64,000 nucleotides of DNA, from the IMG/VR virus record IMGVR_UViG_3300011577_000001; one strand, 5' to 3'. This DNA is from a virus. Lineage: Duplodnaviria; Caudoviricetes. Made by a program: the position numbers and the translations under genes. Positions 2,527 to 60,621 of the stretch are shown piece after piece. Positions within the stretch are counted from its first letter, which is position 1. Each line of letters starts with the position of its first letter. The notes under the pieces are model-generated. The model was not told the origin of the DNA. It saw only the letters and a list, made by a program, of their open reading frames with translations, and made no database searches.

Positions 2527-4491
2527 TTAGTAGGTAGCACCACCGAGACGGTAGCGGATTTCACCCAGGGAAGTGCGGGTAATGAACTCGCTGTTACGGT
2601 ACACCAGACGCAGTTCGCCCGACGAGGAAGCCAGGGTATCGAACGACAGGTCTTGTTCCTGAGCCAGAACGTAGTCGTCACCGACTTTGTCCACACGCAG
2701 GAAGCCTTTCGCCGACTTCTTGGCAGTCTCGCCTTCGGTGGCTGGCGCTTTGTACAGGTCGATGAGGGTATCGTCGATCTGGATCGCAGTGCCTTTGATA
2801 GCTTGGCCGAAGGTGTCACGGGTGATGTACTGGTAGGTGTAGCTACCGATGCCCAGGACCACGTTGCCGGAAGCGAACTTCTTCTTCGCCAGACGACGCA
2901 TGATCTCTTCGGTACGCTGTACGGTGATCGAGTCGCCGTAGATCAGGCCGATGTGTTCGTCCAGCAGACGGTAGCCTTCCGCAGTAGTGGTGCCACCGAA
3001 GGTATCCCACAGGCATTCCACGGCGCCTTTCTCTTCCGAGGTCAGCTCGTGTTCCTCGATCTTGTAGCCGCACTCGTAGTGACCGGTTGGGTCAGTTTCG
3101 AGTTGGATCTCCATCGACTTGAGGAAGCCGTAGATCATCGGCTTGGTCGGGTCATGGGCATCTTTCGCCAGACGTTCTTCGTTGACCTTACGGGAAGTGG
3201 CGGTCATCGCACGGAACGAAGCTACTACTTGTTCCCCGCCCTTCTCGAGGATCTCGGCGTCGAGTTCGGCCCAGGTACGGTTCGGGTTGCGGTGCAACGC
3301 GTCGGTAGCCTTGAGCAGGCGACCTTCGTGATCGCGGTAGTAGATGTGCTTCTGACGGGGCTTGAGACCCTTGCTACCGGAACCGACCATGAGCTGGTGA
3401 GCTTCGACTTCGGTGAAGATTTCAACACCGCAGATGATCTCAACCGGATCACCCGAGTCAGGACGGATCACCACCTTGGCCAGACCGAGGCTGTCTTTCG
3501 GACGTGACAGGATCACGTCTTTCAGTTCAGGAACGATCTTGGTCACCACACCCCAGAAGTCGAACGAGTCCGACACCAAGGCCACAGCACCGTTCGGGTA
3601 GACTTCGGTGATCAGACGCTTGAAGAAGCGCTTCTCGGCTTCCAGGCGCAGGACCTTGTAGCCTTCTTCGGTAACGCCTTCACCGGCAGCCTTGATCTTC
3701 TCCAGCTCGAAGTGCAGCTCGGACAGGATGTTGGCAGTCGCAACGGCGTGTTCGGTAGCCGGGATGGAGCAGGCCACGAACTCCTTCTCCACGTTCGCAC
3801 CGTAGTAGTCTTCGGCGTAGTCGATCGCAGGGATGGTGTCAGTACCGCAGAAGCTCAGCAGGTGACCGAACGAGCCACGAACGTCTTCAAGGCCGATACC
3901 ACGGAACGAGAAGTCGTGACCTTGAACGTCAACGAACTCTTTCGGAGTACCGGTCATCAGTGCCCAGTGTTTCAGCACGCGACGGTATTCGAAAGCGATG
4001 GTCGAGCAGGTGACGATTTTCCAGATCAACGCCGACATCGAAGTTTCGAGGTAGTTGGTGAACCAGTAGAAGTCGGGGTGGGTGTTGTAGATGGTGTACA
4101 ACGGCACGTTCATGTTGACACGCGCACCCTCCGGCAGGGCCAGTACTTCGATCGGCAGGTAGCCCAGGTCGTGTAGCTTCTCGAAACCGTCGACAGGAAC
4201 CTTGCCTTCACCGAGGTAGTAGTCCATGCGGCGCTTGTAGCGCTTGATGACTTCGTCTTTCGGCTTGGAGAAGAAGCTGCGGTTCCACAGTTCGGTCAGT
4301 TCTTGCAGCACCCCTTGCAGACCAGCCCAGACAACCTTGTGGTCCCAGAACTGCGACTTGGACACCGACTTCTGGAACAGACGGTCAGCACGCGCCGTCA
4401 GGTTACCGTAGGTGAAGTTGGCGCCTTTCGGGAACATTGGGCGATGGCCGACTTTGTAACCGTCGCAAACGTTGGGGGCAAACAATTCCAT
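2527..4491 (-). CDS. nadV: nicotinamide phosphoribosyltransferase family protein (NAMPT or NARP1 Namat-like)
   Basis: Motifs DGYKVGH, HDFSFRG, GTDTIPA, SIPATEH, VSDSFD, IRPDSGDP, LIYGDSIT, GIGSYTYQYITRDTFG.A.K, KKSAKG. Confidence 0.92.
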   Translation of the reverse strand: MELFAPNVCDGYKVGHRPMFPKGANFTYGNLTARADRLFQKSVSKSQFWDHKVVWAGLQGVLQELTELWNRSFFSKPKDEVIKRYKRRMDYYLGEGKVPVDGFEKLHDLGYLPIEVLALPEGARVNMNVPLYTIYNTHPDFYWFTNYLETSMSALIWKIVTCSTIAFEYRRVLKHWALMTGTPKEFVDVQGHDFSFRGIGLEDVRGSFGHLLSFCGTDTIPAIDYAEDYYGANVEKEFVACSIPATEHAVATANILSELHFELEKIKAAGEGVTEEGYKVLRLEAEKRFFKRLITEVYPNGAVALVSDSFDFWGVVTKIVPELKDVILSRPKDSLGLAKVVIRPDSGDPVEIICGVEIFTEVEAHQLMVGSGSKGLKPRQKHIYYRDHEGRLLKATDALHRNPNRTWAELDAEILEKGGEQVVASFRAMTATSRKVNEERLAKDAHDPTKPMIYGFLKSMEIQLETDPTGHYECGYKIEEHELTSEEKGAVECLWDTFGGTTTAEGYRLLDEHIGLIYGDSITVQRTEEIMRRLAKKKFASGNVVLGIGSYTYQYITRDTFGQAIKGTAIQIDDTLIDLYKAPATEGETAKKSAKGFLRVDKVGDDYVLAQEQDLSFDTLASSSGELRLVYRNSEFITRTSLGEIRYRLGGATY

Positions 4492-31587: not shown

Positions 31588-31625
31588 GTAATATACATCT
31601 GAAATCTTTTTCATTCCAGTTTACA
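31588..31625 (-). promoter_or_regulatory. early (virion RNAP) promoter
   Basis: TGTAAACTGGAATGAAAAAGATTTCAGATGTATATTAC; exact phiKZ early TATATTAC. Confidence 0.75.
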
Positions 31626-50007: not shown

Positions 50008-50487
50008 TTATTTCAGGCGAGCCATCGCGTCAGCCAGAGCACGGTCGGCGTGCTGAGCACGGACTTCCGATTGAGCCAGCTCACGCTCAGAAGCAGCGAG
50101 GTTCTGACGGGCACGTTGGATGCCTTCTACCAGAGTAGGGGCAGCAGCAGTAGGGGCGTCACCGTCTTTACGCTTGGCTACATCGGACAGCATGATGGGA
50201 GTGCAGTTGAACTCGCGGCAGGACTTGCGCAACATATTCACGTCAGTAGGGATCGACTCACGACGTTTGAACACGAAGTCGAACAGTTCGTCACCGATGA
50301 TGACTACGCCCATACCCAGGTAGGTGTGGAAGTGGCGACCACCGATGTTAACGACGCACAGATCACGCTCGTAGGGATCGTTCTCTTTCGAGGTGCCGAC
50401 TTCTACGGTGTGGACCAGGGTTTGTACTTGGGTGTTCTTCAGACGAGCAACGCCGGAAGACAGAATCAGGTTGTCGATTGCTTTCAT
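50008..50487 (-). CDS. early hypothetical protein with C-terminal coiled coil
   Basis: First gene after early promoter; strong codon bias. Confidence 0.7.
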   Translation of the reverse strand: MKAIDNLILSSGVARLKNTQVQTLVHTVEVGTSKENDPYERDLCVVNIGGRHFHTYLGMGVVIIGDELFDFVFKRRESIPTDVNMLRKSCREFNCTPIMLSDVAKRKDGDAPTAAAPTLVEGIQRARQNLAASERELAQSEVRAQHADRALADAMARLK

Positions 50488-50549: not shown

Positions 50550-50587
50550 GTAATATGTATCTGAGATTTTTTTGATTCCAGTTTACA
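50550..50587 (-). promoter_or_regulatory. early promoter
   Basis: TGTAAACTGGAATCAAAAAAATCTCAGATACATATTAC; near copy of 31588-31625. Confidence 0.7.
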
Positions 50588-50592
50588 CGTAT

Positions 50593-50740
50593 GTAGTGAA
50601 TACAGGCAATGTCAACATTGCTCGCAAGGGGGTGATCCAGCCTTAGTGTGGTCTCCGAATCCTTGTATCGCTGGGAAGCGTAATAAAACGGATTCACGGC
50701 TGCCTGTATCCAGTCCGCCCTTCGGGGCGGACTCCTATTC
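50593..50740 (+). ncRNA. putative structured small RNA or leader with 17-nt complement to the 16S rRNA 3' end
   Basis: TATG start motif 50590-50593; closing stem ATACAGGCA/TGCCTGTAT; AAGGGGGTGATCCAGCC at 50626-50642; UUCG hairpin 50712-50733. Confidence 0.5.
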
Positions 50741-50762: not shown

Positions 50763-51257
50763 ATGACCACCAAGATGACGATCGATTACGATACGATCAT
50801 GCAGGGGCTTGAGAAAGCTGTAGAAGAGCGTAAAGAAGCGGCGGCATGGACCATGGCTAAAGGTCCCACGTTGTTGAAAGAATTCTGTACCATTGGCGTT
50901 ATTGTCCCTAGACAGTGTGGCCGCACCTACACTGCACTTAAACGCTTGGTAGCAAACGAACGTTCAATGTTGATTGTTCCAAACGGGTCTATCCGTGATG
51001 CAATGGCCTGCAACTACCATCATCACTGTGGAGACGAGTTGAACGCCTACGCCAAGTCCCGCATCTACACTTACGGTAATATTGCCTCGGCGATCGCTAA
51101 GGTGGAGGATGGTCAACAGGACATCCTTTGTGCCAATGTGACCGAGATCATCGTGGATGACGCTCTGTACTTCTTCGAACACATTCGCCGTAACAAGTTC
51201 TACAAATGGCTTCACGCTCGCGGTGGGAATGACCAGTTGATTGTCCTGTTGAGCTAA
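50763..51257 (+). CDS. small P-loop/terminase-ATPase-like domain protein
   Basis: PRQCGRT Walker A-like and IIVDD Walker B-like motifs; 164 aa. Confidence 0.55.
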   Translation: MTTKMTIDYDTIMQGLEKAVEERKEAAAWTMAKGPTLLKEFCTIGVIVPRQCGRTYTALKRLVANERSMLIVPNGSIRDAMACNYHHHCGDELNAYAKSRIYTYGNIASAIAKVEDGQQDILCANVTEIIVDDALYFFEHIRRNKFYKWLHARGGNDQLIVLLS

Positions 51258-51651: not shown

Positions 51652-51717
51652 TTTCTATTTTCCTTCTTAGGACTAAAGTTTAATGGGGGGTTCTTCAATA
51701 AACCCCTTTATGCCTTG

Positions 51718-52392
51718 TTACTTCAAGCGCATGTTACGTTGAGCGATTTTCAGGATGTCCTCGTACGACTGAGCAGGACGAACCCTTTCTTTCATGCCAA
51801 GCTTTTGTTTGCCTGTTTCCTTGTCCAACTTCCAACCAGCAACGCTGTAGGTGTCGGTGCTGGAATGTTTGTCTCGATGGATAGCCATGCGGAAAGCAAA
51901 GAACCAACCGATCTTGAAAGATTCAAGGTAGGTGTGGAAGTAGGATGCACCAGAACCAATGGCCACAGGTAGTTCTTTCTGTGGGATCTCGCGGAGAAAC
52001 ATCAGCTTTTTGCGAGGACTGACGCTAAACCGATAGACCTCATGGTTCTCTGTGACGATCAGAGCCTGACCATCTGGAATGCGGGTGTTCTCCATGTTCA
52101 CAGCGCTGAAAGCATCAACGATGTGTTTAAGGTCAGAACGTGCAGTCCAGATAGCCTTGATGAAGGAGGTCATGTTGGAAGAACCACAGGTTCCCATGAA
52201 GACCGCTTTGCGACCTTCGATCAACCGATGATCCAGTTTAGACTCTTTATCAAGGAGTGTGATCTTTGTAGCTTCTTCTTTACTACTGTGGCCAGTAGAC
52301 CCACAGTCGTTACAAGCGTAGTTGTTGGGGTTGATGTTCGTTGACCGTTTGTCAGCGTACATCGCGTGTCCGTTTGTTGCAACTGTCGTCAC
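51718..52392 (-). CDS. Ntn-hydrolase (HslV/proteasome beta-like) peptidase
   Basis: MTTVA....M.AD.R.T N-terminal Thr pattern and AIGSG. Confidence 0.6.
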   Translation of the reverse strand: MTTVATNGHAMYADKRSTNINPNNYACNDCGSTGHSSKEEATKITLLDKESKLDHRLIEGRKAVFMGTCGSSNMTSFIKAIWTARSDLKHIVDAFSAVNMENTRIPDGQALIVTENHEVYRFSVSPRKKLMFLREIPQKELPVAIGSGASYFHTYLESFKIGWFFAFRMAIHRDKHSSTDTYSVAGWKLDKETGKQKLGMKERVRPAQSYEDILKIAQRNMRLK

Positions 52393-53604: not shown

Positions 53605-53632
53605 GTAATATGTATCTCAAATTTGTTTCATT
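53605..53632 (-). promoter_or_regulatory. early promoter
   Basis: AATGAAACAAATTTGAGATACATATTAC. Confidence 0.65.
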
Positions 53633-60567: not shown

Positions 60568-60621
60568 GCGGCATAGAAGCAAAAAAAAAAGAGCCCTGGG
60601 AAACCGGGGCTCTTTATGCCG
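60568..60621. terminator. bidirectional terminator
   Basis: GGCATA..A10-GAGCCCTGG-GAAA-CCGGGGCTC-TTTATGCC. Confidence 0.8.

Follow-up and report, generated by a model that had tools for sequence, protein, structure and literature searches.

The window, the whole 64,000-nucleotide stretch of phage DNA analysed here, was found by sequence analysis to hold a candidate gene for a folded small RNA of ~140 nt at 50593-50733 on the plus strand. The gene is intergenic, lying in a divergent gap of 275 nt with a minus-strand gene (50008-50487) on one side and a plus-strand gene (50763-51257) on the other. All of the sequence features listed in the original prediction were re-located in the window at the positions it had given for them. 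The features of the locus are collected in Table 1.

Table 1. Features of the small-RNA locus and its immediate surroundings in the window
Feature	Position	Strand	Remarks
Early-promoter-like box AAAAATCTCAGATACATATTAC	50550-50571	-	faces the 159-aa gene 50008-50487
TATG, probable promoter core/start	50590-50593	+	motif; G 50593 as putative +1
RNA core, three-way junction of P1, P2 and P3-P4	50599-50710	+	full-length covariance-model match
P1, 9-bp stem ATACAGGCA/TGCCTGTAT	50600-50608 with 50701-50709	+	pairing
P1 5' strand AUACAGGCA	50600-50608	+	partner 50701-50709
P1 3' strand UGCCUGUAU	50701-50709	+	partner 50600-50608
P2 hairpin GCAAUG-UCAA-CAUUGC	50606-50621	+	GCAATG 50606-50611 / CATTGC 50616-50621
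8-codon ORF MSTLLARG	from ATG 50609 to TGA inside the tract	+	
16S-complement tract AAGGGGGTGATCCAGCC	50626-50642	+	17 nt
Junction strand P2-P3 with 16S-tail complement AAGGGGGUGAUCCAGCC	50626-50642	+	
Family-invariant core AGGGGGUGAUCCA	50627-50639	+	R = G in the window copy
GTG	50646	+	13 nt past GGGGG; same frame as ATG 50763
P3-P4 arm	50657-50695	+	GNRA-capped
P3 GAAUCC/GGAUUC (DNA GAATCC/GGATTC)	50657-50662 with 50690-50695	+	
P4 CGCU/AGCG	50669-50672 with 50677-50680 (span 50669-50680)	+	GNRA loop GGGA 50673-50676
Terminator hairpin	50712-50733	+	9-bp G+C-rich stem, UUCG loop, then CUCCUAUUCCC
Downstream gene, 164 aa	50763-51257	+	phrog_2586

The window copy matches the covariance model R2 over model positions 1-109 of 109 with a score of 88.5 bits (E 2.4e-20), the window sequence itself being part of the R2 seed. 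With the model R1, whose seed holds five group-B and DT01 sequences only, the score is 51.4 bits (E 3.3e-10). The fold described by R2 is a three-way junction composed of the closing helix P1, the hairpin P2 and a P3-P4 arm with a GNRA cap, and all four helices are present in order in the match to the window copy. Among the 22 aligned members, compensatory changes on both sides are seen in 23 of the 26 base pairs, and standard pairs account for 89.6% of the pair cells. The covariation score is 0.612 as compared to 0.214 for shuffles, with none of 500 shuffles reaching 0.612, and it is 0.04-0.08 when the partners are slid. The same covariation picture is obtained with R1. Individually, P1 has all six of its modelled pairs compensatory and 93.9% of cells paired, P2 has four of five pairs compensatory and 99.1% of cells paired, and the corresponding counts of compensatory pairs are 6/7 for P3 and 7/8 for P4. 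It is noted that the outer two pairs of P2 and the inner pairs of P1 compete with each other. Many G-U pairs are present that are compatible with the plus strand only. Almost every aligned member has GGGA, GCGA, GUGA or GAGA as its P4 loop, the exceptions being L106, L109 and the phiKZ row. RNAalifold applied to a plain MAFFT alignment missed the inner helices owing to misalignment of the groups, and it was replaced by a hand-written structure with Infernal re-alignment. The proposal of a structured RNA element is borne out by the covariation and by conservation in relatives (Infernal models, 22 members); the fold is real, with the covariation as its evidence.

Copies of the RNA are found in phiKZ, PhiPA3, 201phi2-1, Noxifer, Phabio, Psa21, pPa_SNUABM_DT01 and many metagenomic jumbo phages. 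Those of 201phi2-1 and DT01 were found by BLAST, and those of phiKZ, Noxifer, L106, L107-111, Phabio and Psa21 by the covariance model, in neither case through the exact 17-mer of the window. The phiKZ copy is located between genes 203 and 204, within 212,840-213,060 (+) of NC_004629, and the 201phi2-1 copy between gp304 and gp305, within 229,000-229,210 (+) of NC_010821. A single R2 match is present in the 240-kb record of the source phage, the one genome checked for copy number, and the RNA apparently occurs once per genome. The DNA polymerases of the phages found by BLAST or by the model are about 41-45% identical to that of the source phage, whose lineage lacks a close isolate, the best polymerase identity being about 45%. 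Every member whose host is known infects Pseudomonas. Searches for the family were negative in EL, OBP, SPN3US, Xoo-sp14, one Erwinia relative and one Burkholderia relative, and in 41 of 50 other related IMG/VR records. No match was obtained in 101 Pseudomonas genomes, a result that, with part of the candidates scored, is weak evidence against a host origin. Judging from this distribution, the family is phage-restricted and belongs to Pseudomonas-infecting, nucleus-forming jumbo phages.

Several candidate members were rejected. The weak model matches in L112 and L113 fall within coding-like sequence, and the one in OBP does not include the tract. Tract-like 11-mers in FLC9 and L122 are apparently inside coding sequence, and L120 has an ordinary ribosome-binding site with an ATG 6 nt past GGAGG.

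A BLAST search of the region against the phage collection gave no match, Rfam at permissive thresholds gave chance-level matches only, and a literature search found no paper describing the RNA family. Neither Rfam nor the annotations of the seven named phages include the family. The pPa_SNUABM_DT01 annotation places a 40-aa 'hypothetical protein' over the RNA, on the opposite strand. This lack of the family in Rfam and in the seven annotations stands whatever the mechanism of the RNA.

The strand at the P2-P3 junction carries the sequence AGGRGGUGAUCCA, which is invariant in 24 of 24 members examined and stays while the helix sequences drift from member to member. Contiguous pairing between the window copy and 16S rRNA can reach 17 pairs (16 Watson-Crick and one G-U), and 14-20 contiguous pairs with the Pseudomonas-type 16S end are possible in every member. 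This end, ...GGCTGGATCACCTCCTTA, was confirmed in many Pseudomonas genomes. The invariant block corresponds to the part of the 16S tail that is unpaired. Variation within and around it preserves the pairing, being A/G opposite U in GGRGG and at position -1, and C to U opposite G in GCC, GUC and GUU. A 13-nt core that is invariant across genera, together with flanking changes that keep the 16S pairing, also supports the 16S complement as the functional core of the element. A chance origin of the tract is excluded, because the only zero-mismatch match in 64 kb is the tract itself, with 0.24 expected when 3 mismatches are allowed, and because 15 of the 18 IMG/VR contigs with the exact 17-mer carry it inside the homologous folded element.

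The duplex between the tract and a free 16S tail has a predicted energy of about -25 kcal/mol, and the predicted cost of opening is 7.4 kcal/mol for the window copy and 3.6-8.4 kcal/mol across members. The net predicted energetics favour the 16S duplex. In thermodynamic folding predictions the tract is unpaired to only about 40-50% and some of the G-run is occluded, so that access to it may require a seed or a helper. No conserved internal partner of the tract, as in self-sequestration or a pseudoknot, was found; the predicted partners vary by member, and a short ACC before P3 is the sole recurring one.

It should be mentioned that a strongly conserved Shine-Dalgarno (SD)-like sequence is complementary to 16S rRNA by definition, and complementarity alone leaves room for other SD-recognising partners. 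The tract could bind a protein that recognises SD-like purines, such as S1, an RsmA/CsrA-type protein or a phage nuclear-shell or export factor, or it could bind a CCUCC-like RNA. An invariant, single-stranded block of 13 nt is also what would be expected of a sequence-specific protein site, and jumbo phages encode RNA-binding proteins reported to be needed for infection (10.1101/2023.09.22.559000). However, a protein site does not predict a 16S match of 14-20 nt with wobble-preserving flanking substitutions, and the 16S tail is by far the commonest complementary RNA in the cell. The RsmA/CsrA motif GGA is not in the tract of most members, 17 of the 22 aligned having GGGGG. We consider a partner other than 16S rRNA rather unlikely. 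The multiple exposed GGA loops of RsmY/RsmZ-type RNAs were not found in the element, which has a single purine tract and no Rfam match.

In most members the complement runs on by 3-6 nt (GCC, GUC, GUCG), opposite the 3' strand of helix 45. This strand is paired in the mature 30S subunit and is free in precursors or after damage, and the distal 3-4 pairs (GCC) would require the base of helix 45 to be melted in the mature 30S. The reach into helix 45 is in line with a 16S-pairing RNA aimed at immature or defence-exposed rRNA, one that would cover the 3' end of 16S and the helix-45 base and so keep a host or abortive-infection nuclease away from them, or that would block late 30S maturation. However, the extension is absent in L107 and Phabio and hence is not invariant, and no link to a nuclease or to maturation was seen in the neighbourhood. 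The idea is also purely inferential, and we regard such a target as quite unlikely.

The absence of a start codon at normal spacing, pointed out in the original prediction for the window, holds across the family. There is no ATG, GTG or TTG 3-12 nt past GGRGG in 18 of 18 members, and half of these have no start codon within 17 nt of the tract. A GTG is present 13-14 nt past GGGGG in groups A and C. The ORFs that begin at the few distant GTGs are not conserved, even inside group A, where they comprise 155, 13, 120 and 38 codons and differ in length and frame. Substitutions track the pairing of the helices, not codons. The tract is not a ribosome-binding site for translation, and a coding signal is absent.

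A comparison can be made with the rreB/rreR RNAs of Alphaproteobacteria (PMC5711450; Caulobacter relative RF01867 CC2171). Like the proposed phage RNA, they are short transcripts (~110-165 nt) with their own promoter and terminator and a 16-17-nt complement to 16S rRNA; a complement of at least 16 nt is typical of them, and the phage copy can form 17 pairs. The 17-nt complement of rreB drives co-sedimentation with 30S (PMC5711450). This co-sedimentation is strong, was demonstrated experimentally and requires the extended complement. The rre RNAs are chromosomal small mRNAs whose GUG start codon overlaps the complement at its end and opens a conserved ORF of 14-18 aa, whereas the phage RNA is phage-encoded and has neither; its fold, a three-way junction with a GNRA arm, differs as well. 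If the phage RNA were a small mRNA of the rre type, the tract would be an over-long Shine-Dalgarno sequence for weak translation of a tiny peptide. The similar size, the complement of at least 16 nt, the GTG of groups A and C and a weak Rfam match to CC2171 that passes through the tract are what such an mRNA might display. However, this match is driven by the tract and terminator only and has 16.0 bits (E 1.7) against a threshold, the gathering score, of 75, so the phage RNA is not an RF01867 member. Moreover, the start of rre genes is at the G with which the complement ends (CCA|GUG), and the phage codon at that place is GCC, GUC, GUU or CUG. Considering also the missing start codons at 3-12 nt in any member and within 17 nt in half, the distant-GTG ORFs that differ among close relatives, and the substitutions that fit helices and not codons, translation of a tiny peptide is highly improbable.

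In groups A and B, L018, DT01, Noxifer, L106 and L107-109, TATG precedes P1 by 0-6 nt. The phiKZ late promoter consensus is TATG with G as +1, a motif that is necessary and not sufficient (PMC4666361). In the phiKZ clade, TATAG stands in place of TATG directly ahead of P1, and a middle-promoter-like AAAAATACG is found near -22. The element had been called a late phage RNA. The TATG motif is present at 50590-50593 and in most groups, but late timing would not be general, because the phiKZ-clade copies begin at TATAG with a middle-promoter-like box. A hairpin terminator is present 3' of P1 in every member, usually followed by TTTATGCC. Intrinsic terminators of phiKZ consist of a stem-loop and then YTTATKYYGT (PMC10914365). 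The tail of the window terminator, CUCCUAUUCCC, departs from the usual YUUUAUGCCG (YTTATGCC) of the family.

The genes downstream of the RNA are unrelated across the family, being phrog_2586 in the source phage, PHIKZ204 in phiKZ, an SNF2 helicase in PhiPA3 and Noxifer, and gp305 in 201phi2-1. In L006-L008 the element is followed by a second hairpin and not by a gene, and in phiKZ, Phabio and Psa21 early-type promoter boxes TCTATATTAC are located past the terminator of the RNA. The 164-aa protein of the gene at 50763-51257 matches only phrog_2586 (function unknown) and no Pfam family. The earlier description of this gene as ATPase-like retains a Walker-A-like PRQCGRT and finds no further backing in these matches. 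No homology of the 164-aa protein to PHIKZ204 was found, and its homologue in 201phi2-1 is ~63 kb from the RNA copy of that phage. Synteny via the downstream protein is seen in one close relative only, with the distant homologues elsewhere in their genomes. The gene is probably a neighbour and not part of the RNA function. The SNF2 helicase adjoins the element in phiKZ, PhiPA3 and Noxifer and is ~1.6 kb away in 201phi2-1. The linkage between them is not universal, because the SNF2 helicase was not found in the source record, which is 87% complete.

These neighbourhoods bear on the possibility of a cis-acting leader, in which the element would be the 5' part of the downstream mRNA and its super-SD a 30S standby site or a STAB-SD-like stabiliser of read-through transcripts, or in which the binding of ribosomes would tune termination at the hairpin, making it an attenuator. 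In phiKZ, many short RNAs come from 5'UTRs through premature termination, and a long read-through form accompanies each of them (PMC10914365). The terminator tail of the window copy, CUCCUAUUCCC, is less strong than the consensus of the family, and the following gene begins just 30 nt on. A precedent is STAB-SD of the Bacillus thuringiensis cry3A mRNA, a non-initiating SD that binds 30S in cis (Agaisse and Lereclus 1996, reviewed in PMC4113751). Like the phage tract, STAB-SD is SD-like, complementary to the 16S 3' end and without initiation, and the bound 30S affects the fate of the STAB-SD RNA. However, STAB-SD is short and unstructured, sits at the 5' end of a long Gram-positive mRNA and acts in cis versus RNase J1, whereas the phage tract spans 13-17 nt within a conserved fold, with a terminator before the next gene and unrelated neighbours. 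A leader is also difficult to reconcile with the early-promoter-like box between terminator and next gene in phiKZ, Phabio and Psa21, or with the second hairpin of L006-L008, and a covarying three-way junction with a GNRA arm exceeds the needs of a stabiliser. A cis-acting leader is therefore unlikely. The more specific suggestion that the element is a ribosome-sensing leader controlling the gene at 50763 is also unlikely, given the unrelated downstream genes, a terminator that always lies between, and the early-type box in the same three phages. The RNA gene is independent of its neighbouring genes.

We propose that the element is a stand-alone phage RNA binding the anti-Shine-Dalgarno tail of 30S subunits, a reading to which the sequence evidence gives a probability of roughly 0.55. 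Transcription would probably start from the G of TATG (50593) and end at the hairpin 50712-50733. P1 would join the two ends of the RNA, with AAGGGGGUGAUCCAGCC on the strand between P2 and P3, where it could pair with the single-stranded 16S 3' tail, the anti-Shine-Dalgarno region GGAUCACCUCCUU. In most members the pairing would also take in the final bases of helix 45. With its 14-20 bp, the duplex would be far stronger than that of any ordinary ribosome-binding site. As the tract is not followed by a start codon, the RNA could occupy the 30S platform without being translatable.

Binding of this kind may have different outcomes. The RNA could compete with Shine-Dalgarno-led mRNAs for initiation, as a decoy, shut-off or re-programming factor. 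Another possibility is protection of the 16S tail against the factors acting on it, for instance hibernation factors or nucleases. The ribosome might also be used for the stability or localisation of the RNA itself, with the P1/P2/P3-P4 body as a handle for a further partner. As a counterpoint, a stoichiometric decoy would hit the SD-led mRNAs of the phage too, and over-expression of rreB in Bradyrhizobium did not slow growth (PMC5711450). It is a more tentative proposal, with somewhat less than an even chance of being correct, that a dedicated trans-acting jumbo-phage RNA docks on the 30S anti-SD tail and re-programmes or protects the host translation apparatus. Such an RNA might shut off SD-dependent initiation at a set stage, block hibernation or defence factors that act through the 16S tail, or tether ribosomes to a phage partner held by the folded body.

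Candidate ncRNAs of phiKZ-like phages from Grad-seq and ONT-cappable-seq are short, abundant and structured, with phage promoters and a hairpin-TTAT terminator (PMC8545117, PMC10914365, PMC11512511). The family RNA resembles them in being short and structured and in its putative phage promoter and hairpin-TTAT terminator. The published loci are the 3'UTR of PHIKZ298 and the 5'UTRs of p40, PHIKZ221, PHIKZ302 and gp182/gp277, all of which differ from the locus of the family RNA; the comparison covers the loci named in the texts of the papers. 201phi2-1 sRNA005, or phiKZ 'sRNAgp182', is conserved in phiKZ, 201phi2-1, EL and PhiPA3 (PMC8545117, PMC10914365, PMC11512511). An identity of the family RNA with it was rejected, the locus being different. 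The transcriptome papers on phiKZ-like phages that were searched do not mention 16S complementarity. Outside phages, a fragment of archaeal Val-tRNA is a small non-coding RNA reported to bind the small subunit and to compete with mRNA (PMC11009984, PMC5711459). RNAs of this type differ in that they bind near the decoding site by shape, without pairing to the 16S tail, and are products of cellular stress and not viral genes.

If the proposed binding is true, ribosomes would be controlled by a new route, through an RNA that grips the 16S tail. To our knowledge, phage takeover of translation has so far been known through proteins. Protein-based control is exemplified by phiKZ gp014, which acts on the 50S subunit (PMC10914614). 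Should the trans-acting, 30S-docking reading be true, the element would be, as far as is known, the first case of a viral RNA that targets bacterial rRNA by direct base pairing. The element would then also offer a natural and very strong 30S-binding module, a possible tool. A conserved RNA gene would also be added to an intensively studied group of therapeutic and model phages, and since phiKZ, PhiPA3 and 201phi2-1 carry the RNA, the idea is directly testable with existing methods.

Two motifs are over-represented in the window. The sequence CTTTATGCC, with at most one mismatch, has 23 matches as compared to 8.4 expected. The AAAAATCTCAGATACATATTAC-type early-promoter-like motif occurs three times on the minus strand, with 0 expected. 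The box 50550-50571 is assigned to the 'early' class through TATATTAC, which we take to be the phiKZ early consensus. This box is part of the neighbouring unit, which is arranged back-to-back with the RNA gene.

Direct reading of the window located every sequence feature of the original prediction, which had proposed a structured small RNA carrying a 17-nt complement to the 3' end of 16S rRNA, and the inner helices that it had listed are likewise present. The positions are collected in the table, together with those of a repeated motif and of copies of the RNA in isolated phages. The tract, the junction strand that holds the complement, occurs once in the window, where with three mismatches allowed just 0.24 matches are expected by chance. 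Compared with shuffles, folding of the single sequence scored modestly better for either strand (z = -2.8 and -2.4), and such scores would not on their own prove an RNA.

Features of the RNA element and a repeated motif in the window, and copies of the RNA in isolated phages
Feature	Position	Strand	Remark	Source
17-mer AAGGGGGTGATCCAGCC (the tract)	50626-50642	+		window read
TATG	50590-50593	+		window read
P1 closing stem	50600-50608 with 50701-50709	+	9 bp	window read
UUCG hairpin	50712-50733	+		window read
Tiny ORF MSTLLARG		+	ends inside tract	window read
GTG	50646	+	13 nt beyond GGGGG, same frame as ATG 50763	window read
AAAnATyTnAGATryATATTAC	31588-31609, 50550-50571, 53605-53626	-		motif count
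phiKZ copy	212,854-212,971		between PHIKZ203 (-) and PHIKZ204 (+)	R2
Noxifer copy			directly upstream of SNF2 helicase gene	R2
Phabio and Psa21 copies			weak matches; same architecture by inspection	R2
201phi2-1 copy	229,016-229,203		between gp304 and gp305	BLAST
PhiPA3 copy			between gp232 and SNF2/DarB-like gp233	BLAST
pPa_SNUABM_DT01 copy				BLAST

The predicted fold is borne out by covariation in relatives. Among 22 aligned members, 23 of the 26 pairs change on both sides, and standard pairs are found in 89.6% of the pair cells. The covariation score is 0.612 versus 0.214 for column shuffles, none of 500 reaching it, and 0.04-0.08 for slid partners; the alignment was model-fitted and is biased toward structure, with a margin that is still very large. 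The covariance model R1, a consensus structure written on five sequences of contig group B, was built without group A (that of the window) and group C, and placed both groups into the same helices; it matched all groups at full length and was rebuilt as R2. The frequent G-U pairs of the family are compatible with the plus strand only. The family fold is a three-way junction, in which P1 unites the 5' and 3' ends, P2 is a short hairpin, and P3-P4 form a long arm with a GNRA tetraloop (GGGA, GCGA, GUGA, GAGA) in nearly all aligned members. An extra hairpin of ~30-45 nt between P1 and the terminator is seen in phiKZ (locus L129, 1619-1690), group C, the IMG/VR contigs L107-109 (where its loop is GNRA), Phabio and Psa21, and is missing in the window's group. 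Its presence in just some of the copies indicates that the family has an optional 3' module.

A search for the exact 17-mer gave 18 IMG/VR contigs; 15 hold it within a clearly homologous element, in which the substitutions that distinguish the helices are paired. R2 also matches copies lacking the exact 17-mer, in phiKZ, Noxifer, one 269-kb contig, five contigs of 128-223 kb, Phabio and Psa21, and finds one copy in the window's own genome record. The family was not detected in EL, OBP, SPN3US, Xoo-sp14, an Erwinia relative or a Burkholderia relative, gave no R2 match in 41 of 50 other related IMG/VR records, and was not found among 101 Pseudomonas genomes, which is a weak test. The window adds a deeply diverged new phage lineage that retains the RNA, along with a wider list of genera. 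In pPa_SNUABM_DT01 (DT01; locus L024, 2524-2646), CDS PA10_00263, a 40-aa 'hypothetical protein' on the opposite strand, lies right over the RNA element and is probably a mis-annotation.

While the helices drift, none of the 24 members seen departs from AGGRGGUGAUCCA. This sequence is complementary to UGGAUCACCUCCU, essentially the entire unpaired 3' tail of 16S rRNA. The mature 16S rRNA ends at ...CCUUA, and its tail 3' of helix 45 is single-stranded; the DNA form of this end, ...GGCTGGATCACCTCCTTA, was verified in many Pseudomonas genomes. An unbroken run of 14-20 pairs with the tail is possible in each member, and one of 17 (16 Watson-Crick and one G-U) in the window copy. The variable positions change as predicted for RNA-RNA pairing: opposite U, the middle base of GGRGG and, except in the Noxifer pair, the base 5' of AGG are either A or G, and the extension beyond CCA is GCC, GUC or GUU opposite GGC, so that C-to-U changes retain wobble pairs. 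The invariant block stops at the start of helix 45, and the variable part is the one needing helix 45 invasion. Beside these pairing-preserving changes, recognition of the invariant tract by another partner that recognizes Shine-Dalgarno sequences is unlikely; Rsm sponges are defined by multiple GGA motifs exposed in loops, a feature that the element lacks. A duplex between the tract and the free 16S tail has a predicted energy of about -25 kcal/mol, and freeing the tract from the RNA's own fold is predicted to cost 7.4 kcal/mol in the window copy (3.6-8.4 across members). Folding predicts that the G-run is partly occluded by a partner that varies among members, so the tract has no conserved internal partner.

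In another jumbo phage (contig L123, IMG/VR record G025, 283 kb), TATG, ~20 nt, GGAGGTGATCC and a phiKZ-type terminator (hairpin + CTTATGCCG) follow one another at about locus position 1502 (-), with no start codon. This site could be a ~65-nt non-homologous mini-analogue with the same 16S-tail complement. Contig L119 (G047) has another intergenic GGAGGTGATCC with no obvious ORF.

The absence of a start codon at normal spacing, as originally predicted, holds for the window and for every one of the 18 members surveyed as representatives: the stretch 3-12 nt past GGRGG contains no ATG, GTG or TTG, and in half of the members none occurs in the first 17 nt. Groups A and C have a GTG at +13 or +14, and the ORFs that begin there run to 155, 13, 120, 38, 11 and 15 codons. 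Because these lengths disagree, there is no conserved ORF, and it is therefore by accident that in this genome the frame stays open between GTG 50646 and the gene at 50763. We judge that the tract is not a gene's ribosome-binding site.

The element is, by its flanking signals, probably an independent transcription unit. TATG is located 0-6 nt 5' of P1 in the window's group, group B, DT01, L018, Noxifer, L106 and L107-109. In phiKZ, the non-virion RNA polymerase uses late promoters whose consensus is TATG, the G being +1; this motif is needed but does not suffice (PMC4666361). The copies in phiKZ, PhiPA3, 201phi2-1, Phabio and Psa21 have TATAG instead, and AAAAATACG, located ~22 nt upstream in that of phiKZ, is similar to the middle-promoter box AAanTTACc, so that the proposed 'late' class is not established for the RNA. 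A G+C-rich hairpin stands 3' of every member, usually followed by YTTTATGCC; a tail of this type after a hairpin is the phiKZ intrinsic-terminator motif (PMC10914365). With up to one mismatch, CTTTATGCC has 23 matches in the window versus 8.4 expected (e.g. 319-327, 51706-51714, 60612-60620), an enrichment that fits the use of phiKZ-type 'hairpin + YTTATKYYGT' terminators in this uncultured phage. The tail following the hairpin of the window RNA, CUCCUAUUCCC, departs from the motif, and some read-through into 50763 is therefore possible. Such read-through would suit a generic cis leader, which is nevertheless rather improbable, the genes downstream of the RNA being unrelated among phages; the suggested leader controlling the gene at 50763 is unlikely. 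The RNA's terminator is followed in phiKZ, Phabio and Psa21 by a TCTATATTAC box, which we take to be early-promoter-like. The 22-nt motif in the table, with three copies in the window and 0 expected by chance, resembles the phiKZ early-promoter box TATATTAC; the middle copy stands back-to-back with the RNA gene and faces the divergent gene for a 159-aa protein.

The best-supported reading, to which we assign a probability of about 0.55, is a non-coding phage RNA that would pair with the anti-Shine-Dalgarno tail and thereby bind 30S subunits. The sequences show complementarity, an invariant tract, variation that keeps pairing intact, and neither coding nor cis linkage, and to this extent the original prediction stands. 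We infer the 30S binding and its effect with the backing of two precedents, rreB and STAB-SD. The complement in rreB RNA is 17 nt long, and this RNA sediments together with 30S in a manner that depends on the extended complement (PMC5711450); STAB-SD is a non-initiating Shine-Dalgarno sequence holding a 30S subunit (PMC4113751). The likeness of the element to rre mRNAs and STAB-SD is limited to 16S-tail pairing. It has neither the start codon, small ORF and Rfam score that define rre mRNAs nor the cis position that defines STAB-SD, and no Rfam family matches it; an rre-like small mRNA is extremely improbable. Pairing of the tract with the anti-Shine-Dalgarno tail would leave the RNA bound to the 30S subunit, and the result of this occupancy could be decoy or shut-off, tail protection, self-stabilization, or tethering via the folded body. 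A trans-acting viral RNA targeting ribosomes is a tentative proposal, while action of the RNA on immature or damaged 16S rRNA, which would draw on the same complementarity, is quite improbable. The ncRNA candidates of phiKZ and 201phi2-1 named in the published texts examined map to other loci, and 16S complementarity is not mentioned in the transcriptome papers PMC11512511, PMC8545117, PMC8244752 and PMC10914365. Searches of PMC10914614, PMC12571901 and PMC12676376 turned up no RNA in the PHIKZ203/PHIKZ204 gap; the phiKZ copy may already be an unnamed candidate in published candidate tables.

The window is part of a 240-kb IMG/VR virus record, ~87% complete, with phiKZ-type genes for DNA polymerase (phrog_3011), virion proteins and internal head proteins. 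No isolated phage has a DNA polymerase more than ~45% identical to this one, which indicates a new lineage of nucleus-forming jumbo phages; the closest isolates by this protein are Xanthomonas phage Xoo-sp14 and Pseudomonas phages Phabio, 201phi2-1, Noxifer, DT01 and phiKZ. A gap of 275 nt holds the RNA element and separates two divergent genes, one on the minus strand (50008-50487) and the other on the plus strand (50763-51257). The latter encodes a 164-aa protein (phrog_2586) with a Walker-A-like VPRQCGRT and no Pfam match; a Klebsiella jumbo phage has a distant homologue under the name 'terminase large subunit', a putative function. At 51718-52392 (-), a 224-aa protein matches the HslV-family peptidase phrog_1040 (E 5.7e-12), and a phage NAD+ salvage gene at 2527-4491 (-) codes for a nicotinamide phosphoribosyltransferase of 654 aa (phrog_448, E 3.6e-174).
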